This document shows positions 6,217 to 36,380 of a stretch of 36,380 nt of DNA, piece after piece. The translations under genes were made by a program, and so were the position numbers. Source of the stretch: an uncultured Candidatus Saccharibacteria bacterium (GTDB lineage Bacteria; Patescibacteriota; Andersenbacteria; UBA10190); the NCBI GenBank assembly GCA_964374055.1, contig CAYJWZ010000002.1, positions 1-36,380 of the forward strand. The letters run 5' to 3'. Every line of letters begins with the position of its first letter. Positions within the stretch are counted from its first letter, which is position 1. The notes beneath the pieces were generated by a model. It was given only the letters and a program-made list of their open reading frames with translations. It ran no database searches and had not been told where the DNA came from.

Positions 6217-7174
6217 AGTTTTAATTACCGGCGGGGCCGGTTTTATTGGTAGTAATTTGGCGCATGCGCTGGTGCAGCAGGGTGCGCAGGTGACGGTGTT
6301 AGATGCGTTGTTGCCACTGTATGGCGGCAACGAATTTAACTTAGAAGACATTCGCAGCCAGATTGAATTTGTTACGGGTGATATTCGGGATGAGGAGTTG
6401 GTGAAGAAATTAGTGACGGGAAAAGATTTGATTTATAACCTGGCGGCGCAGGTTAGTTATATTGATTCAAAAGATCAGCCGTTTTTGGATTTGGATATTA
6501 ATGGGCGGGGGCATTTACTCGTCTTGGAAGCGGTGCAACAGCTGGCGCCGGCGGCTAAAGTTTTCTTTTCTTCATCGCGACTGGTGTATGGCAAAATTCA
6601 AACCTTACCAGTCAAGGAAACGCACCCAACTACTCCCCTTTCGATGTACGGTATACATAAACTGCTGGGTGAAAAATATTATCGTTATTTTGCTGATACG
6701 TATAATCTACACACTGTGTCAATCCGTATTCCGAATCCGTATGGCCCGCGGCAGCAGATGAAGCACAGCAAATATTCGATTGTCGGCTGGTTTATCCGGC
6801 AGGCGATGGCGGGAAAGACCATCACTGTGTTTGGCGATGGCTCGCAAGAGCGGGACTATTTATATAGTGATGATATTGTTGATGCCTTATTGCAATTAAG
6901 TGACAAAGGCGAAAGGGGTGAGGTATATAACGTGGGCACGGATGAGCGGATTCGGTTTGTGGATATGGTGGATGAAGTGATTACAGCAGTTGGTTCTGGT
7001 AAAAAGGAACATGTGCCGTGGCCAGCTAACTATGAGAAAAATGAAACGGGCAACTATGTGGCCGATACCTCGAAGATTGAGTCGCTAACGGGTTGGAAGC
7101 CGCGTGTAAAGTTGGCGGATGGTATTGCCAAGACCGTGGAGTACTATAAAAAGTATCAGGCGCACTATTGGTAA
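6206..7174 (+). CDS. NAD-dependent epimerase/dehydratase (extended SDR)
   Basis: ORF 6101..7174. The Rossmann start MNAKVLITGGAGFIGSNL is at ATG 6206 and overlaps the upstream stop by 11 nt. Catalytic YxxxK is in SMYGIHKLLGE. Confidence 0.85.
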   Translation: MNAKVLITGGAGFIGSNLAHALVQQGAQVTVLDALLPLYGGNEFNLEDIRSQIEFVTGDIRDEELVKKLVTGKDLIYNLAAQVSYIDSKDQPFLDLDINGRGHLLVLEAVQQLAPAAKVFFSSSRLVYGKIQTLPVKETHPTTPLSMYGIHKLLGEKYYRYFADTYNLHTVSIRIPNPYGPRQQMKHSKYSIVGWFIRQAMAGKTITVFGDGSQERDYLYSDDIVDALLQLSDKGERGEVYNVGTDERIRFVDMVDEVITAVGSGKKEHVPWPANYEKNETGNYVADTSKIESLTGWKPRVKLADGIAKTVEYYKKYQAHYW

Positions 7175-7175
7175 T

Positions 7176-9548
7176 ATGTGGCTACGAAGCTGGTGGTGGG
7201 TGGCGGCGGGCGTCGTGCTGCTGGGATTACTACTGGTGCAGTTTGTGCGGGTCAACGAAAAAATATTTGAACAGGTGGCGTATACGGGGCATGCGGGGGA
7301 GCTCATTGGGGCGAAGATGGTTGGACAGACCTTTGTGGCCCCGGGAAATTATTTGTCGGGGGTGGCGGTGCAATTTGGGACGTATTCAGGCCGAAATAAT
7401 ACTCGGCCGGTGCAGTTTGGTTTGCGGGAATGGGGGAGTGCGGAGGATCTGCGAATAGCTAGGGTTATGCCGGCGGAGCTGGGCGATAATCAGCCGTATC
7501 GCTTTGATTTTGATCCAATAGCTGATTCAGCGGGCACAACCTATTTCTTTTATGTAACGTCTCCCGAAAGTACGCAGGGGAATGCAGTGACAGTCGGGAT
7601 TGATAACCGAGATCCGTATCCATCTGGCACAGCGTTTATTGGAGACGCAAAAGCAGTGGCGAAGTCGGGTAAGCCAGTGACCGATCTTGCATTCGCTTTG
7701 TATCAAGCGGTCCCGGTATCTGCGGCAGCTTGGCATTGGCTTATATCGTGGTGGCATAATTTCACCTTCGATCGGGCTTGGTTGCCAGGAGTATTGGGCG
7801 CGGTGGTGGTGACGCTGGTGTGGTGTTGGGCGGATCGTATTAAAACGCGCCGGGCTACTTTGGGTACGCTTGGTGTTTTATTTATCGCGGCATTGCTCTG
7901 GCGATGGTGGTATGCGCGGGAATTGCCGCTTACTAATGATGAAGGAAACTATTTGTATGATGCGTGGACATTGTTACATGGGAAGCTGGCCGGAGGCGAT
8001 GGTTATGTAAAGGCGCCATTGTTTATTGCGTGGATTGCGCTCTGGCAGTTGGTGGCCGGGCATACGGTGCTGGCGGGCCGAATGTCGTCGGTTGTTATTA
8101 GTTCACTGACGCTGTGGCCGGTGTATGTGTTAGCGGTATCTTTGTGGAATCGCCGGACCGGTTTAGTAGCGGCTGCTTTGTGGGCAGTTACTGGTGTGGC
8201 CGTGGTGTTTGGAATTTATGTACATACCCAGCCAGTAGCTCTGTTTTTCGCGGTGGCTGGAATTGCCTTATTAGCTCACACAGTGCGGCACAATACGAGA
8301 GCATGGCGCTTCGTGGCGGCTGGTGTGTTACTTGGACTAGGCGTAGCCTCGCGTAAAAGTGTGCTGGCGGTTGGCTTGGTGCCGCTCATTATGCTGCTGA
8401 TACCTCAATTCCACCCGTCGGGTGGAATTGAGGGTTATACGCGGAAGGTAAAGCAATTGGCGTGGGTTGGGTTGGGGTTTGTTGTGGTTATCGCATTGTT
8501 TTTGCTGGCGGCGCATAGCATGTACGGGACGATGGGTGTGCGGGAAGCGATTGGTATCGGGTCGGCGGAAGATAGTATTAATACTGACCCGGCCCAAGCC
8601 GAACAAGTACGGGCGTACTCGATTCGGGGGATGACGCCATTTTTCCGGGAATCATTGCCGCTTATTTTGTTATCGCTGATTGGTTTGGGTGTGGCTGGTG
8701 AACGTTGGGCGCGGCGCTGGGTGCAACCGGTGGTCGCAAAACTTGCTTGGCTGTTACCAGCCGCTATCTTCTACTGGGCGTGGTGGTTTTTCTTTGAGTA
8801 TGAAGGCGCGGTTTTTCATCGGTTTGGAATTCTCGAATTATGGTATATATTTCCAGCGGTTTTGTTGCTGCTTGCGGTATGGCCCTTCGACCCGCCTATG
8901 CCAAGGCTACGGCGGGCAGGCTCACTTCTAGGAACGTATGTGGTGGTTCCGCTGTGGGTTTTTGGCTTGGTAATTTTTTACACTAACTGGATTAAATTTC
9001 ACGCCAATTACATTGCCGAATTTATTCCGCCGCTGGTAGTGTTGTCGGCCTATGGGGCGGTTGCACTGCGTGATCGTTTGCCACGGTATCTATGTGAAGC
9101 AGTTTGGCTGGTCGTGATAGGGGCGATCGTCGTAACGGGGTATGTGACGTTTGTTTTTGAGCATACCGGAACGTTTCAACAGGAGGCGGTGGCGGAGGCA
9201 GCCGCCTGGGCTAAAGAAAATATTCCAGCTGACCAGGCTATTTTCACCGGGGCGGCAGTTGTACCGTACGTTTCCGGTCAGCATGTGGCACTCGACATTG
9301 CCCATCCCCGCTGGTATGCCTATGAATTTACCCGGAAAGACCCAGTGCGTTTAAACACGTTCTTACCATCAGCTGAAAAAATGCTTGAAGCCTTTCGTAA
9401 AAGCGAATGGGTGCTGATGGAGCAGCAAACTGGCTTTTCCTTCTTAATGGAATACAGCGAAATTGAAAAATCCATTAATGAAGATTTTCAAGCGGTGCAT
9501 GTGGTAGAGAACGGCTCGAACACACTGACGTTCTATCGGCGTCAATAG
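7176..9548 (+). CDS. GT-C fold glycosyltransferase (PMT/ArnT, PMT_2-like) with an N-terminal extracytoplasmic module
   Basis: ORF 7119..9548. ATG 7176 follows the upstream TAA (7172-7174) and gives the anchor MWLRSWWWVAAGVVLLGLLLV. A soluble module of about 110 aa (7320..7646) comes next, then many TM helices with the first-loop motif LTNDEGNYLYDAW. Confidence 0.75.
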   Translation: MWLRSWWWVAAGVVLLGLLLVQFVRVNEKIFEQVAYTGHAGELIGAKMVGQTFVAPGNYLSGVAVQFGTYSGRNNTRPVQFGLREWGSAEDLRIARVMPAELGDNQPYRFDFDPIADSAGTTYFFYVTSPESTQGNAVTVGIDNRDPYPSGTAFIGDAKAVAKSGKPVTDLAFALYQAVPVSAAAWHWLISWWHNFTFDRAWLPGVLGAVVVTLVWCWADRIKTRRATLGTLGVLFIAALLWRWWYARELPLTNDEGNYLYDAWTLLHGKLAGGDGYVKAPLFIAWIALWQLVAGHTVLAGRMSSVVISSLTLWPVYVLAVSLWNRRTGLVAAALWAVTGVAVVFGIYVHTQPVALFFAVAGIALLAHTVRHNTRAWRFVAAGVLLGLGVASRKSVLAVGLVPLIMLLIPQFHPSGGIEGYTRKVKQLAWVGLGFVVVIALFLLAAHSMYGTMGVREAIGIGSAEDSINTDPAQAEQVRAYSIRGMTPFFRESLPLILLSLIGLGVAGERWARRWVQPVVAKLAWLLPAAIFYWAWWFFFEYEGAVFHRFGILELWYIFPAVLLLLAVWPFDPPMPRLRRAGSLLGTYVVVPLWVFGLVIFYTNWIKFHANYIAEFIPPLVVLSAYGAVALRDRLPRYLCEAVWLVVIGAIVVTGYVTFVFEHTGTFQQEAVAEAAAWAKENIPADQAIFTGAAVVPYVSGQHVALDIAHPRWYAYEFTRKDPVRLNTFLPSAEKMLEAFRKSEWVLMEQQTGFSFLMEYSEIEKSINEDFQAVHVVENGSNTLTFYRRQ
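8403..8433. repeat. P3 hairpin: perfect 14-bp stem with 3-nt loop, in frame inside a CDS (encodes PQFHPSGGIEG)
   Basis: cctcaattccaccc-gtc-gggtggaattgagg read directly. It shares the core ATTCCACCC-N3-GGGTGGAAT with the hairpin at 35720..35750. Confidence 0.9.
8891..8916. repeat. P4 repeat: CCGCC-N14-GGCGG inverted repeat inside a CDS
   Basis: cccgcc-tatgccaaggctac-ggcggg. It has the same architecture as 19145..19170, with 9/14 loop identity. Confidence 0.6.
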
Positions 9549-13163: not shown

Positions 13164-13177
13164 GTTAGTCTTCGTGT

Positions 13178-13209
13178 CCCCGGATATTTCCATCCGGGGC
13201 TTTTTATTT
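13178..13209 (+). terminator. rho-independent terminator
   Basis: ccccggat-atttcc-atccgggg (8-bp stem) followed by ctttttattt, 15 nt after the stop of the 12360 ORF. Confidence 0.7.
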
Positions 13210-13224
13210 GTACTGTTGCTTTGT

Positions 13225-15135
13225 ATGTGTGGCATTGTTGGTATTTGGAATAAACATCCGCCCCGCCAGCTGGCGGGTGGCGGACCAGTTGACCAGGGTT
13301 TGCTGGTTCGTATGCGGGATACGATGACCTATCGAGGGCCGGATGGGGCGGGGATATATCTTGATGGGGGAGTGGGCCTAGGGCACCGGCGGTTGAAAAT
13401 CATCGATCTGACCGAAGCCGGGGCGCAGCCAATGACCCTTCGACAAGCTCAGGGTAAACCCGATGGCAGGTACACAATTGTCTTTAATGGTGAGATTTAT
13501 AATTTTCGGGAACTGAAAGAGCAGTACTTGAAATCGTGGAATTTTAGATCGACCTCGGATACAGAAGTATTACTGTATTTATTGGCCGATAAAGGGGTAG
13601 AAGCTTTATCGTTATTGCGCGGCATGTTTGCGTTTGCTTTGTGGGATACGAAAAAACAAGAGTTATTGCTGGTGCGCGATCCGTTTGGTAAGAAACCGCT
13701 CTATTATGCTGTTGTTAACGGAACAGTTTTGTTTGCTTCAGAGATTAAAGCGTTGTTGGAATATCCGGGACTGTCGAAAGAGCTCGACCGGGCAGCCGTA
13801 GCCAAATACTTTTTATATGAATATGTCCCAGCGCCGGCCACACCGTATGCGGCTATTCGCCAAGTGCCGATGGGGAGCTATGTGCGCTTTACTCAACAGG
13901 GCGAAGAGGTAAAACAGTGGTGGCAGCTTGATTTTGCGCCCAAGCAGAGTTTGTCTTTTGGAGAAGCGAAAGATCAGCTTGATTATTTATTGCAACAATC
14001 AGTTAGCCGACGCATGGTGGCGGACCTGCCTGCCGGACAGGCAGGTGTGCCGGTGGGTGTGTTTTTGAGTGGCGGATTGGATTCAACGACAATTGCTTAT
14101 TATATGCGCCGCGTCAGTACGGAGAAGCTGCATTCCTTTTCGGTTTCGTTTCAGGAGCCAACATTTGATGAGTCGTCGTATGCGAAGAGAGCAGCGGAGG
14201 CGCTCGGAACGGAGCATCATGATATTCCGTTTACGGTGGAAACTTTTCACGCGGCACTTGGCGACATTACTTCACGTTTGGATGCGCCGCTGGCTGACGC
14301 GTCACTCTTGCCAACCTATGCTGTTAGTAAATTAGCGCGGGACCATGTGACGGTGGTGCTGGATGGTGATGGTAGTGATGAATTGCTGGGGGGGTATGGG
14401 TTGTTTCAAGCGGCTGGGGTAGCTGATGCATTACGGTGGTTACCGGCTGGTGTGATAGCCGGGCTGCAGCAACTGGCGGCGGAGCTGCCGACCAGATATC
14501 ATAATTTTTCGTTTGATTTTAAAGTGAAATCTTTTTTGCGGGGTTTAGCCTATGAGCGTTGGCCGCGGAACCAGGTATGGCTAGGGTCATTTTCGCCGAC
14601 AGAGCTGACAGAGTTACTGACTCCCGAATGGCAATGTGACGTTTTGGGTGATTTGATCGAGCCGAAAGAAATGCGGCGCTTGGGCACGTTTGATGCGGTC
14701 TCGGCTTTATTGCTACGCGAGTACTTACACAATGACTTATTGGTGAAGTTGGATCGAGCAGCCATGCTGGTAGCGTTGGAAGGGCGGACGCCGTTTCTGG
14801 ATGCTGACTTGGCGCAGTTTGTAGCCCAGTTGCCGGTAGCGATGAAGCGAAATAAGTTTTTGTTGAAGCAGGTGATGCGCGATAAAATTCCAGATGCGAT
14901 TATTGATCGGCCAAAGAAAGGGTTTGGTATTCCGCTCGGCTGGTGGCTCAAAGGGCCGTTGCATGGTTGGGCACAAGAAGTTTTGAGCGAAGATAAGTTG
15001 CAACGTGGGGGAGTGATTAATCCCGCAGTTGCCCAGCGTTTACTTCAAGAACATCGAGCCGGTAAAGCCGATCATCGCAAGAAACTATGGACGCTACTGA
15101 CGTGGCAGCTGTGGGTGGATCATTTTTTGGCGTAA
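13225..15135 (+). CDS. asnB: asparagine synthase (glutamine-hydrolysing)-like amidotransferase
   Basis: ORF 13174..15135. The functional start must be ATG 13225 so that Cys is residue 2 (MCGIVGIWN, Ntn amidotransferase). Motifs: HRRL.IIDL, IVFNGEIYNF, SDTEVLL, and the PP-loop VGVFLSGGLDSTTIA. The 13174 extension overlaps the upstream terminator. Confidence 0.9.
   Translation: MCGIVGIWNKHPPRQLAGGGPVDQGLLVRMRDTMTYRGPDGAGIYLDGGVGLGHRRLKIIDLTEAGAQPMTLRQAQGKPDGRYTIVFNGEIYNFRELKEQYLKSWNFRSTSDTEVLLYLLADKGVEALSLLRGMFAFALWDTKKQELLLVRDPFGKKPLYYAVVNGTVLFASEIKALLEYPGLSKELDRAAVAKYFLYEYVPAPATPYAAIRQVPMGSYVRFTQQGEEVKQWWQLDFAPKQSLSFGEAKDQLDYLLQQSVSRRMVADLPAGQAGVPVGVFLSGGLDSTTIAYYMRRVSTEKLHSFSVSFQEPTFDESSYAKRAAEALGTEHHDIPFTVETFHAALGDITSRLDAPLADASLLPTYAVSKLARDHVTVVLDGDGSDELLGGYGLFQAAGVADALRWLPAGVIAGLQQLAAELPTRYHNFSFDFKVKSFLRGLAYERWPRNQVWLGSFSPTELTELLTPEWQCDVLGDLIEPKEMRRLGTFDAVSALLLREYLHNDLLVKLDRAAMLVALEGRTPFLDADLAQFVAQLPVAMKRNKFLLKQVMRDKIPDAIIDRPKKGFGIPLGWWLKGPLHGWAQEVLSEDKLQRGGVINPAVAQRLLQEHRAGKADHRKKLWTLLTWQLWVDHFLA
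13258..13283. repeat. P5 palindrome (centre CCGCCAGCTGGCGG) in frame in asnB
   Basis: ccgccccgccagctggcgggtggcgg read directly; it encodes PPRQLAGG. It shares CCCCGNCAGCTGGCGGG with 30846..30863. Confidence 0.75.
13434..13461 (+). repeat. P2 repeat copy (26/28 identical to 2750..2777), in frame in asnB, encodes (T)LRQAQGKP
   Basis: gacccttcgacaagctcagggtaaaccc versus gaccattcgacaggctcagggtaaaccc. Confidence 0.85.
14025..14045. repeat. P1 palindrome copy inside asnB, in frame (LPAGQAG)
   Basis: cctgcctgccggacaggcagg; codons ctg cct gcc gga cag gca ggt, immediately before the PP-loop VPVGVFLSGGLDS. Confidence 0.9.
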
Positions 15136-31135: not shown

Positions 31136-32261
31136 TTTTGAATACCCGCCGTTAGGTGGCGGCGGGGGTGTGGCGACCAAGCAGGTTGCCGAAGAGTTGG
31201 CCAAACGACATACCGTTTATGTGTTAACAACACACTTTACGGGTTTAGCGCGTCGGGAGGTGTGTAATGGTGTTACGATCCATCGTCTGCCAGTGCTAGG
31301 GCGTAAAAGTTTGCCAGTTGCCTCATTGATTTCGCTGCTCACTTTTGTGCCAGCAGCGCTGTGGCGAGGGTGGTGGTTGTGCCGCCAGGAGCGTTTTGAT
31401 GTTATCAACGCGCAGTTTGCGGTCCCGTCAGGGCTGGTGGCCTGGCCGCTGGCCCGCTGGTTGGGGGTGCCATTTATTTTGAGTTTTATTGGTGGTGATG
31501 TGTATGACCCCAGCAAAGGAACTTCGCCCCACCGGAGTATTTTATTACGTTGGTTGATCCGCCGGCTGGCGGAGTCGGCTGGCGGGCGAACGGCGATTTC
31601 GTCTGATGTAGCCCGCCGGGCGCGCGAGTTGCATGGGGTGAAGCAACCAATTACGGTGGTGCCATTGGGGCTTATTCCGACGAAAGTGACGGTGAAGACG
31701 CGGACTGAGTTAGGTTTGCCGGAACATGTGCCGCTCTTTATTTCAGTGGGACGACTTATCCCGCGTAAGGGTTTTGAGGATTTGTTGCGCGCTTGGCCGG
31801 ATATACCAACAGCTCATCTGGTTATAGTGGGCGATGGTCCACTGCGCAGTCGATTAGAAAAGGTTATTCAGGAGTTGGATATTGGTGGCCGGGTGCATCT
31901 TTTGGGTTTTGTGGATGAGACTAAGAAACAGAAGCTATTACGAGCGGTTGATGTCTATATCTCTGGGGCCGAACATGAGGGATTTGGAATTGTTTTTCTG
32001 GAAGCAATGGAAGCTGGTTTACCAATTATAGCTACTGATACGGGCGGGCAGACGGATTTTCTAGTTACCGGAGAAAATGCAGTTCTCGTGCCAGCGCGGC
32101 AGCCCGAGCAACTGCTGGGAGCGATCAAGCTCATATTAAAAGATTCCCGACTTCGTGAAGCGCTGGCGCGTAACAATCGGGAGAAGGTGCAGCAGTATTA
32201 CCTGGAAAAAACGGCCGCGCAGTTTGAAACCGTTTTGCAACAGTATGCGCATCGCACTTGA
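31116..32261 (+). CDS. GT4 family glycosyltransferase
   Basis: ORF 30954..32261. ATG 31116 gives MRLLIINFEYPPLGGGGGVA, parallel to MYILLINNEFPPIGGGGS of the 5077 gene. EHEGFGIVFLEAMEAGLPIIATDTGGQTDFL. 20-nt overlap with the upstream gene. Confidence 0.85.
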   Translation: MRLLIINFEYPPLGGGGGVATKQVAEELAKRHTVYVLTTHFTGLARREVCNGVTIHRLPVLGRKSLPVASLISLLTFVPAALWRGWWLCRQERFDVINAQFAVPSGLVAWPLARWLGVPFILSFIGGDVYDPSKGTSPHRSILLRWLIRRLAESAGGRTAISSDVARRARELHGVKQPITVVPLGLIPTKVTVKTRTELGLPEHVPLFISVGRLIPRKGFEDLLRAWPDIPTAHLVIVGDGPLRSRLEKVIQELDIGGRVHLLGFVDETKKQKLLRAVDVYISGAEHEGFGIVFLEAMEAGLPIIATDTGGQTDFLVTGENAVLVPARQPEQLLGAIKLILKDSRLREALARNNREKVQQYYLEKTAAQFETVLQQYAHRT

Positions 32262-33324
32262 AACACGAGCGCTGGCGGCGCAGGGTGGGGGCGTGCGGCG
32301 GTATGTGGAGCACATACTGCACGAGCTTACACGGCACCCTGAGCACACAGTTATGCAACTTAGTTTGTCGAACGAGCTGTTCGTCGCGCCGTGGCTCAAG
32401 TGGTATGTGCCGCGGGTAGTAAAAAAACTGCAACCGGACGTCGTACATTTTACAAAAGCGGACGTCCCGCGGCGAAAAGTAGTGCCGACGGTGGTGACGA
32501 TCTACGATGTTATTCCTTTGTTGTTTCCTGAAGGTCAAAAGACGTTACAGCGCTGGTATTGGCCAGGCGCTTTGGCTCGGGCGGCACGCTTTAGCGATGC
32601 GATTATAACAATTTCAGGGGCCAGTAAACGTGATATTGTTGAGAAGTTACAAGTAGCGCCGGAGAAAATTACGGTGACGCCGTTGGGGGTTGACGCTGCC
32701 CGTTTTCGCCCTCAAGGTGTCAGGAACTCTGGCGATAAAGTTCCTGACACCCTCACTCCTTACATTCTTTTTGTCGGGACGTTGGAACCGAGAAAGAATG
32801 TCCCGCTGTTGATCCGGGCGTTTGCGCGGATAGCGCGAGATATTTCTCATCGCTTGGTCATTGTAGGTAAACGTGATAACGATTTTGGTGCAGTGCGAAC
32901 GGCTTTACGGGAAAGCGGCTTGGGCAATCGGATTGAGCTTAAAGACTTTGTGTCGAGTGAGGAGTTATCACACTTATATGCCGGCGCTGATTTATTTGTC
33001 TGGCCATCGGTGTACGAAGGCTGGGGGTTGCCCCCGTTGGAAGCGTTGGCCAGTGGGGTGCCGACTATTGTGAGTGATGGAGGTTCTTTGCCGGAAGTAG
33101 TTGGTGAAGCCGGTGTCATCGTGTCATTTACTGAACCAGGCATACAGAAGCGGATGAGTGATGCGGTGTTCGAAGTAAAACTGGCGGAGGCAATGCGGGC
33201 GGTCTTAACTGACTCGGCGCGGCAAGAAAAGTTACGAGCAGCTGGGCCACAGCAAGCGGCGAAATTTACTTGGGCCGGAGTGGTGGAAAAGACACTGGAA
33301 GTATATAAGAAAGTAGCGATATGA
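32245..33324 (+). CDS. GT4 family glycosyltransferase
   Basis: ORF 32155..33324. ATG 32245 gives MRIALETRALAAQGGGVRRY. ILFVGTLEPRKN, PSVYEGWGLPPLEALASGVPTIVSDGGSLPEVVG. Confidence 0.85.
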   Translation: MRIALETRALAAQGGGVRRYVEHILHELTRHPEHTVMQLSLSNELFVAPWLKWYVPRVVKKLQPDVVHFTKADVPRRKVVPTVVTIYDVIPLLFPEGQKTLQRWYWPGALARAARFSDAIITISGASKRDIVEKLQVAPEKITVTPLGVDAARFRPQGVRNSGDKVPDTLTPYILFVGTLEPRKNVPLLIRAFARIARDISHRLVIVGKRDNDFGAVRTALRESGLGNRIELKDFVSSEELSHLYAGADLFVWPSVYEGWGLPPLEALASGVPTIVSDGGSLPEVVGEAGVIVSFTEPGIQKRMSDAVFEVKLAEAMRAVLTDSARQEKLRAAGPQQAAKFTWAGVVEKTLEVYKKVAI

Positions 33325-35711: not shown

Positions 35712-35719
35712 GGGTAGTA

Positions 35720-35750
35720 CCATGATTCCACCCGAAGGGTGGAATCATGG
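35720..35750. repeat. P3 hairpin: perfect 14-bp stem with 3-nt loop, abutting or overlapping the RAYT-like gene start
   Basis: ccatgattccaccc-gaa-gggtggaatcatgg read directly. ATG 35747 lies in the right arm. Confidence 0.9.
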
Positions 35751-36283
35751 TTTATAGTGTAGATATGCGGCGTAAGGAGGCACTCGAGGTAGGCGAAGTT
35801 TATCATGTGATGAATAAAAGTATTGCCGGATATACGATTTTTAATACTGACGAAGATTACGCGAGGATACTACAAGCGTTAGAGTACTTTTCGATTGCTG
35901 AGCCGCTGCCAAAGTTTTCATATTTTCTTCAGCGGAGCAGAGAAGTTGGCAAAACGTTTCCAGTTTATCTTGATCAGTGTTTTCCTAAACCAAGGCGACT
36001 CATTCGGATTGTTGCATACTGCTTTATGCCGACGCATCTCCATCTTCTACTAGTTCCGCTAGCCAAAAATGGCGTGGCTCATGTGATGAGTAACGTATTA
36101 AATAGCTATGCTCGGTACTTCAATATAAAGCATAAACGGCAGGGTCGGCTGTGGGCTGGCCCCTATAAAGATGTCTATGTGGGGTCAGACGAGCAATTGT
36201 GGCACTTAACGCGCTATATTCATCTTAATCCGGTGACAGCCCATCTGGTTGAACGAGCTGAAGAGTGGTCCTTCTCTTCCTAG
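35747..36283 (+). CDS. IS200/IS605-type HUH-Y1 transposase-like protein (REP-associated tyrosine transposase, RAYT-like); possibly truncated by an in-frame TAG
   Basis: YHVMNKSIAGYTIF, the HUH motif in CFMPTHLHLLLVP, and the catalytic-Tyr region LTRYIHLNPVTAHLV, then EEWSFSS-stop. An alternative start is ATG 35765 (MRRKEAL). Confidence 0.75.
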   Translation: MVYSVDMRRKEALEVGEVYHVMNKSIAGYTIFNTDEDYARILQALEYFSIAEPLPKFSYFLQRSREVGKTFPVYLDQCFPKPRRLIRIVAYCFMPTHLHLLLVPLAKNGVAHVMSNVLNSYARYFNIKHKRQGRLWAGPYKDVYVGSDEQLWHLTRYIHLNPVTAHLVERAEEWSFSS

Positions 36284-36380
36284 CGTGAATATATAACGTC
36301 CTCACAGGTAAAACGACCACACTGTGACTATCGCGGGTTGTTTGAGATTAATCCCCGTGTATATAGTTAATTTGTGTAGG

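Follow-up and report, generated by a model that had tools for sequence, protein, structure and literature searches.

At the end of a contig from an uncultured, ultra-small and Andersenbacteria-like bacterium of the candidate phyla radiation (CPR) lies a gene for a Y1 transposase with a HUH motif, directly preceded by a perfect hairpin. The stretch analysed here (the window, 36,380 nt) is the complete contig, and the gene (the Y1 gene) and its hairpin are best explained, at a probability of about 0.72, as a system of the REP/RAYT type (repetitive extragenic palindromes and a tyrosine transposase associated with them), also called REPtron-like, in which a single-copy class-2 Y1 gene occupies a fixed slot in a glycosylation cluster and is bracketed by its cognate hairpin. 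Two supported conclusions carry this reading. The protein is RAYT/TnpAREP-like and not a TnpA of the IS200/IS605 insertion sequences (IS), since it has a Y---NP motif, a REP-associated family as its sole NCBIfam match and the structure of E. coli TnpAREP (4ER8) as the best match by profile as well as by fold, and since relatives share its slot and copies on one contig are 60% identical. The hairpin is the cognate element of the gene, because three of three orthologous loci have a downstream partner, 72 of 74 family loci have a locus-specific repeat common to both flanks, a GT39 glycosyltransferase gene contains an inserted solo copy, and solo copies outnumber the gene-flanking ones in three metagenome-assembled genomes (MAGs).

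The Y1 protein and its genomic slot

The HUH motif and the Tyr region named in the initial annotation are both present (PTHLHLL and RYIHLNP), and the protein passes the Pfam model Y1_Tnp (PF01797) with 28.9 bits at a cutoff of 23. The sole NCBIfam match is REP_Tyr_transpos (NF047646), scoring 59.7 bits over residues 83-177 only. The Y motif of the protein, YIHLNP, has the form Y---NP, which is the signature of class-2 (TnpAREP-like) proteins, as opposed to the Y---Q of IS200 (PMC6006769). When a protein profile built from 45 homologues was compared with the PDB, 4ER8 was matched at E = 3.9e-7 with an alignment that runs through the Tyr helix and the W.FS motif, whereas the best IS200/IS605 match, ISDra2 TnpA (2XM3), reached 2e-3 and was aligned only around the HuH motif. 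AlphaFold modelled P0002, an orthologue of full length with 81% identity over the whole-protein alignment, at a predicted local distance difference test score (pLDDT) of 91.5. The fold of this model matches 4ER8, IS608 and ISDra2 at a probability of 1.00 each, with 4er8_A first in Foldseek (E = 5.6e-8) and IS608 and ISDra2 trailing it by three to four orders of magnitude (~2e-4; others 1.8e-4 or worse). The RAYT-like character proposed initially, as opposed to that of an IS200 TnpA, is thus borne out by the Y motif and by the first rank of 4ER8, as well as by the slot shared with two relatives and the 60% identity of intracontig copies. The residue preceding the HuH motif is a Thr, which is found at this place in none of the twelve subclasses of the published subclass table (PMC6006769).

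Y1 orthologues are present in three related contigs (L001, L002 and L003). In L001 and L003 the slot is conserved, with the Y1 gene following a GT4 glycosyltransferase gene of 391-393 aa and preceding a convergent GT9 gene, and the full-length proteins of these same-slot orthologues are 81% (L001) and 72% (L003) identical to that of the window, in which the neighbours of the Y1 gene are GT4 enzymes. The Y1 core shows a dN/dS of 0.07-0.10 against the orthologues. The family comprises at least 579 loci in JGI metagenomes, and where two Y1 copies occur together they are diverged: those on one 532-kb metagenome contig (L090/L111) are 60% identical and have their own hairpin each, while those in the Roizmanbacteria contig L020 are 37% identical. 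Low copy number, vertical inheritance and a stable position are accordingly seen in the shared neighbours, the 37-60% intragenomic identity and the dN/dS of ~0.1. This low-copy, stable and diverged pattern matches that reported for RAYTs (PMC5581495, PMC6006769) and not IS behaviour. The second Y1 gene of L020 (6087-6743) lies 4.3 kb from the hairpin-flanked one, with no obvious hairpin of that type around it. The GC content of the window's Y1 gene (35765-36380) is 44.5%, compared with 51.5% for the window, and in three genomes the deficit amounts to 7-11 points (42 versus 50 for L001 2922-3593; 40 versus 52 for L003 9956-10627).

The cognate hairpin and its solo copies

The arms of the hairpin upstream of the Y1 gene, ACCATGATTCCACCC (35719-35733) and GGGTGGAATCATGGT (35737-35751), are 100% complementary and enclose the loop GAA, so that the perfect stem noted initially is correct while its length is 15 bp rather than the 14 bp given there. 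The hairpin lies 8 nt 3' of the GT4 stop codon. Folded as single-stranded DNA (ssDNA) it reaches -16.8 kcal/mol, compared with -4.2 ± 1.5 kcal/mol for dinucleotide shuffles (z = -8.5), and none of the 200 shuffles was as good.

The upstream hairpin is present in the window, and a downstream one would fall past the end of the contig. As the window is the complete contig and no record of an identical protein exists, the downstream hairpin was sought in the orthologous loci. There the check suggested by the initial annotation gave a positive answer, as the core ATTCCACCC-NNN-GGGTGGAAT is found upstream of the gene and again 10-40 nt after its stop codon in L001, L002 and L003, the downstream copies being already degraded. 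The same core brackets family members in three MAG loci (L012, L019 and L020), whose proteins are 29-44% identical to the query. The pairing also holds across the family, for which the flanks of 80 metagenome loci (42-67% identity; 74 evaluable) were surveyed: an exact word of at least 11 nt is common to both flanks in 72 of the 74, compared with 10 of 74 in the control, in which the upstream flank was matched to the gene interior. The shared repeat is usually a hairpin of 17-40 nt, the sequence of which varies between loci around one basic layout, (A)ACCAT - spacer - (Y)CCACC - loop - GGTGG(R) - complementary spacer - ATGGT(T), with direct as well as inverted orientations of the loop.

The L002 locus has features of its own. 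Downstream of the right hairpin (800-875) the GT4 3' end, stop codon included, is repeated almost exactly over 48 nt, and a weaker resemblance to the GT4 3' end is seen upstream of the left hairpin (1-45), while the Y1 protein is 81% identical to P0002 and 86% identical to the 178-aa open reading frame (ORF) of the window. Because of the GT4 3'-end copy downstream of the right hairpin, the cassette boundary is placed ~45 nt away from that of the window and L001, which is possibly a trace of cassette movement or of a hairpin-mediated rearrangement.

The right foot of the upstream hairpin abuts a -10-like hexamer, which recurs at the identical 6-nt spacing from the start in the orthologues (TATAAT in L001 and L003, TATACT in L002); in 38 of the 74 family loci a comparable hexamer is found no more than ~13 nt before the inferred start codon. 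The foot ATGGT is contiguous with a TATAAT-like hexamer, often as TGgTATAAT, in the window (35749-35767), in L001 (2905-2924), in L003 (9940-9958) and in many of the loci L063-L142. Judging from this layout, the Y1 gene may be transcribed without a leader, with TATAGT as its possible promoter and the hairpin overlapping it, and, since the hairpin abuts the hexamer 6 nt before the start, the hairpin may double as promoter/operator of the Y1 gene. The true start is likely the in-frame ATG at 35765, judging from the homologues, which begin there (MRRKE...). The ATG at 35747 does lie in the right arm of the hairpin, as had been noted, but it opens only the mechanical ORF (35747-36283, 178 aa) and is probably not the start codon. 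A GTAG tetranucleotide is located 1 nt from the stem (35714-35717) in the window only; being absent from the orthologues and the solo copy, it was treated as a chance occurrence and not as a guide. Conserved instead of GTAG are the ACC...GGT feet and a 3' GGTTATA.

Exactly one further copy of the hairpin is present in the window (8403-8433; 2 matches, 0.00 expected), so that the initial statement that this hairpin family peppers the adjacent 35 kb was exaggerated. The copy lies in a GT39 ORF of 809 aa with the Pfam domain PMT_2, the reading frame of which is left unbroken. Those relatives of the GT39 protein that carry a name point to a CPR bacterium of Andersenbacteria-like affinity. The insertion adds seven residues to a short inter-helix loop between hydrophobic segments and is absent in 20 of 20 aligned orthologues, one of them 75% identical, and at the nucleotide level the gene is a net 21 nt longer but otherwise alignable. 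The solo and the gene-proximal copy have the 5' (T)ACC, the whole core (21/21) and the 3' GG(G)TT(T)ATA in common, indicating a mobile unit of ~39 nt, as feet, core and 3' flank are all shared. By these alignments the solo copy is a lineage-specific in-frame insertion; in-frame insertions of REPs into genes were already known (PMC6006769).

Outside the window, the exact 21-nt core was found in 57 stretches when one genome per species was scanned. In the three MAGs with family members bracketed by the core, the copies number 13 (Omnitrophota, spread over 8 contigs), 8 (Roizmanbacteria) and at least 5 (the third MAG), with solo copies on further contigs; these copies are mostly located outside long open frames, some as tandem or overlapping dimers, and in the three MAGs solo hairpins outnumber those flanking a gene. 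Hairpin dimers are seen in L034 (5767-5805), L052 (5034-5072) and L019 (6797-6834) and recall REP doublets, REPINs and bacterial interspersed mosaic elements (BIMEs). Two sets of core matches were not used as evidence: those in Microbacteriaceae/Actinomycetota (L008, L013, L018, L033 and L037), which seem to belong to a conserved coding stretch with similar flanks in the five genomes, and those in Aliidiomarina halalkaliphila (L014, L021, L040 and L044), which are four copies of TTCCACCCCWGGGGTGGAA with flanks of their own. Some of the TTCCACCCCWGGGGTGGAA copies lie inside longer perfect stems (aacaacaa...ttgttgtt) and may represent a separate gammaproteobacterial REP-like family.

If the protein works as E. 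coli TnpAREP does, it would bind the hairpin folded in ssDNA, for example at the replication fork, and would cleave nearby via a 5'-phosphotyrosine intermediate, using His97 and His99 with a metal ion and Tyr157 (numbering of the 178-aa ORF). Rejoining of the strands would then copy or move short hairpin units to new sites, and one such event would have given rise to the in-frame solo copy in the GT39 gene (8403-8441).

State of the gene and alternative readings

The end at 36283 that was initially assigned to the Y1 gene is not its natural end. The homologues are ~223 aa long, and homology can be followed past the TAG at 36281, which replaces a near-invariant Tyr, up to the final base of the window, across two further nonsense codons in the tail remnant, TAA 36368-36370 (from TTA) and TAG 36377-36379 (from GAG). 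Therefore, either the copy is truncated, having lost its last ~50 residues (~45 when counted on the 178-aa ORF), or the end of the contig contains an error or misassembly. Recoding of the in-frame TAG was rejected, because TAA (10), TGA (10) and TAG (4) all terminate other long ORFs of the window. Nucleotide changes unique to the window amount to 9% in the tail remnant compared with 3.5% in the core (Fisher p = 0.027), the latter being the rate of the intact orthologues L001 and L002, and this pattern fits relaxed constraint after a real truncation as well as contig-end errors. The dN/dS of the tail is uninformative on relaxed selection, since dS is saturated (omega 0.13-0.24, the same as for intact pairs). 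The copy may be inactive, or, by analogy with the E. coli enzyme shortened at its C-terminus, may be competent but deregulated. REP DNA is bound and cleaved by TnpAREP, the cleavage activity of which rises when its autoinhibitory C-terminal tail is truncated (PMC3479197), so that, by analogy only, truncation need not mean inactivity.

Several observations weigh against a REP/RAYT-type system. The three nonsense codons in the last 100 nt of the Y1 gene make present-day activity doubtful, and the match to the RAYT equivalog NF047646 scores 59.7 and thus below the curated cutoff of 80. By its Y motif and SS motif, and also by its length, the family most resembles Quentin subclass 2.1, in which REPs were not found. 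The 5' GT[AG]G guide tetranucleotide is not conserved, as the corresponding positions read GCAG in L001, GCGAG in L002, GTAAGG in L003 and CTGAT in the solo copy, and flanking hairpins alone would equally fit the ends of an IS200-type element. Finally, the copy number is low, with 2 copies in 36 kb here and, over 43 kb in two segments of a 125-kb contig from a relative, none besides the two that flank the gene. Classical REPs have more than 100 dispersed extragenic copies per genome, and such a high copy number is not shown here, since the hairpin is rare in the lineage.

The nonsense codons are also the starting point for the alternative that fares best, a dead relic, in which the system would be extinct in this genome and the hairpins its fossils. 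This would be compatible with a REP/RAYT-type origin and is a possible if rather doubtful account of the locus: window-unique substitutions are 2.6 times denser in the tail than in the core (p = 0.027) and only one solo copy is visible, but the 172-codon core is free of lesions and, with 3.5% unique changes, equals that of the intact L001 and L002. Moreover, both hairpins of the window have perfect 15-bp stems, whereas the downstream copies of the relatives are degraded, all lesions lie within 100 nt of the contig end, where assembly errors concentrate, and E. coli TnpAREP is more active without its C-terminus.

The placement of the hairpin between the GT4 stop codon, 8 nt away, and the -10-like hexamer, a layout that recurs across the family and often reads TGgTATAAT, could also mean that the hairpin is mainly an expression signal, acting as terminator or mRNA-stabilising stem-loop of the GT4 gene or as promoter/operator of the Y1 gene. 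The Y1 protein would then be a domesticated, non-mobilising ssDNA-binding enzyme or regulator, in line with a single-copy gene under strong purifying selection like domesticated RAYTs (PMC5581495), and the copy at 8403 would have arrived by another route. This is improbable, given that no T-tract follows the stem and that a generic scan for sigma-70 promoters and terminators called neither at the hairpin; it also leaves unexplained the downstream partner, the dispersed solo copies in three MAGs and the 21/21 core match with shared flanks in a coding sequence, absent from 20 orthologues.

Least probable is an autonomous minimal IS200-type IS that would transpose as a whole hairpin-gene-hairpin unit with the hairpins as its left and right ends: the similar subterminal hairpins on both sides of the gene, as in IS200/IS605, the lowered GC content of the gene, which is also seen in relatives, the GT4 3'-end copy and shifted boundary of L002, and a contig break inside the gene, as occurs at repeats, speak for it, but the gene occupies the same slot in two relatives with proteins 72% and 81% identical, has Y---NP and not Y---Q, is closer to 4ER8 than to all IS200/IS605 TnpA by profile and fold, is not accompanied by tnpB, and has intragenomic copies with only 60% (L090/L111) or 37% (L020) identity, while solo hairpins outnumber those associated with a gene. 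None of the IS200/IS605 traits looked for (near-identical multicopy, Y---Q, tnpB) was found, the copy number in the source genome not being countable.

Other palindromes in the window

Perfect hairpins with a stem of at least 9 bp number 10 in the window, compared with 1.6 ± 1.1 in shuffles. Only one recurrent family was found besides the cognate hairpin, CTGCCTGCC..GGCAGGCAG with five copies (Table 1), and the remaining hairpins are singletons, so that the at least five other palindrome families listed initially were not confirmed. The CTGCCTGCC palindrome also occurs in unrelated metagenome or MAG loci (L034, L062, L066 (twice), L069, L090, L104, L123 and L140). Its copy at 14024-14046 encodes LPAGQAG in an asparagine synthase ORF (13174-15135); these residues are present in the L061 orthologue and absent from that of L062, which indicates another in-frame palindromic indel. 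A perfect hairpin with a 13-bp stem and a 10-nt loop (32716-32751) lies inside a GT4 ORF (32155-33324) and may be another intragenic palindrome insertion; at this place the L003 orthologue differs, with gaps of two and three residues and unrelated residues. A link of the Y1 gene to these palindromes was considered and rejected: they share no sequence with the cognate hairpin, and CTGCCTGCC adjoins members in L090 that have a different hairpin. The proposal of the initial annotation that the Y1 protein mobilises the palindromes of the locus is thus upheld as regards the cognate role of its own hairpin, and the gene should not be assumed to mobilise the others.

Rfam at gathering thresholds yielded no match in the window. 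GC skew is positive, strong and uniform over 1-36380 (0.10-0.28 in each 2-kb bin), and the plus strand carries most of the long ORFs; the contig as a whole would seem to belong to a single replichore, its genes pointing in the direction of replication.

Table 1. Coordinates of the Y1 gene, its hairpins and the second recurrent palindrome in the window.
Feature	Position	Strand	Remarks
Cognate hairpin ACC-ATG-ATTCCACCC-GAA-GGGTGGAAT-CAT-GGT	35719..35751	.	15-bp perfect stem, 3-nt loop
-10-like hexamer TATAGT	35753..35758	+	6 nt before ATG 35765; abuts right foot of hairpin
Y1 HUH catalytic core of RAYT-like gene	35765..36283	+	From homology-supported start to premature TAG, 172 codons
HuH motif His-Leu-His (within PTHLHLL)	36035..36043	+	Invariant in homologue alignments; preceded by Thr, not by Asp/Asn of described subclasses
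Y motif YIHLNP (within RYIHLNP)	36215..36232	+	Catalytic Tyr codon 36215-36217; Y, H, N and P invariant in 45 homologues
Premature TAG	36281..36283	+	Replaces near-invariant Tyr (TAC/TAT in orthologues; FSSY.EY motif)
Remnant of sequence coding for C-terminal tail	36284..36380	+	Still alignable to homologues; contig stops before natural stop codon
Solo hairpin CCTCAATTCCACCCGTCGGGTGGAATTGAGG with shared 3' GTTATAC	8403..8441	+	In frame in GT39 (PMT_2) membrane glycosyltransferase ORF 7119-9548
Palindrome CTGCCTG(C/T)C-CGG-(R)CAGGCAG	1158, 4097, 14026, 23165, 34467		~19-22 nt each

Comparison with known systems

As regards the window, the outcome is modest: its Y1 gene belongs to a recognisable family and is truncated. 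Systems of the REP/RAYT type, atypical hairpins without GTAG and REPs inserted in frame have all been described before; new are the lineage and a protein subfamily that published classifications have not sampled. The 2018 classification of TnpAY1 proteins mentions neither CPR nor Omnitrophota (PMC6006769). A literature search for TnpAREP combined with Parcubacteria or Omnitrophota found no report in the library searched; a single mention each of REP elements and of the candidate phyla radiation occurs in one preprint, and matches to 'RAYT' with 'Patescibacteria' were unrelated word matches. A separate description may be merited by the Thr preceding the HuH motif, by the hairpin with its two feet and by its fusion to a promoter. 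It is tentatively suggested, with the odds rather against it, that these features define an undescribed subclass of RAYT-like Y1 proteins, widespread in CPR/Patescibacteria and Omnitrophota, with T-HuH, YIHLNP, a conserved helical C-terminal tail and a GTAG-less double-footed hairpin, (A)ACCAT-N-CCACC-loop-GGTGG-N'-ATGGT(T), the right foot of which would be joined to TGgTATAAT as an extended -10 element for leaderless transcription of the gene. If this is true, each dispersed hairpin would be a potentially portable promoter/operator, able to land in frame in the genes of tiny genomes.

The characterisation of REP/RAYT systems has drawn on complete genomes and has been confined almost entirely to Proteobacteria, Cyanobacteria and Bacteroidetes. 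If gene and hairpin form a conserved pair in hundreds of uncultured lineages, the range of these persistent replicators, which are inherited vertically, would come to include streamlined, ultra-small genomes in which spare DNA is scarce. The co-variation of hairpins from locus to locus provides a natural data set on how Y1 enzymes read hairpins, and the in-frame insertion in the GT39 gene indicates that such elements can remodel proteins of surface glycosylation.

Compared with E. coli TnpAREP/RAYT (4ER8; Quentin subclass 2.2, Bertels group 2), the family has in common the Y1 HUH core, the Y---NP motif, the W.FS(S) motif after the Tyr helix and a C-terminal extension past the IS200 core, as well as a single-copy gene with flanking cognate hairpins and solo hairpins elsewhere. 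It differs in an identity of only ~14%, in Thr instead of Asp before the HuH motif, in a length of 223 aa instead of 165 and in a different helical tail (YQRELA.IK), and its hairpin, unlike the E. coli REP, has no conserved 5' GTAG, a symmetric foot, ACC(AT)...(AT)GGT, and low copy numbers rather than hundreds. IS200/IS605 TnpA proteins (IS608, ISDra2, IS200) also have the HUH-Y1 fold and hairpins on both sides of the gene, and their recognition of subterminal hairpins on ssDNA may, by analogy, apply to the family; their Y---Q motif, obligate dimers, near-identical multiple copies and frequent tnpB, by contrast, are not seen here.

Among the TnpAY1 subclasses (PMC6006769), subclass 2.1 (Bertels group 1, TIRYT-like) likewise has Y[IV]HLNP, an SS motif in the proximal tail, ~220-240 aa, a C-terminal extension and a low copy number. 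In place of its NH[VYF]H the family has THxH, no Pfam domain is detected in the tail, where subclass 2.1 has C-terminal domains of the helix-turn-helix type, and flanking hairpins are nearly always present, whereas no REP-like hairpins were found for subclass 2.1. Non-canonical hairpins without GT[AG]G that flank RAYT-like genes and also occur elsewhere in the genome are known from subclasses 2.6 and 3 (PMC6006769), but these have other motifs (NH[LIV]H with YIH[QN]NP, or YV..EQ) and belong to Bacteroidetes or to Planctomycetes, Acidobacteria and Proteobacteria. The in-frame copy in the GT39 gene has parallels in turn, with a short palindrome in frame in a surface or loop region of an intact ORF, as for REP insertions (PMC6006769) and those of Rickettsia. 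It differs from other in-frame palindromes in its length of ~39 nt, in its net gain of 21 nt and in a candidate cognate enzyme encoded 27 kb away on the same contig. The palindromic elements of Rickettsia, too, are in-frame palindromic insertions in coding genes.

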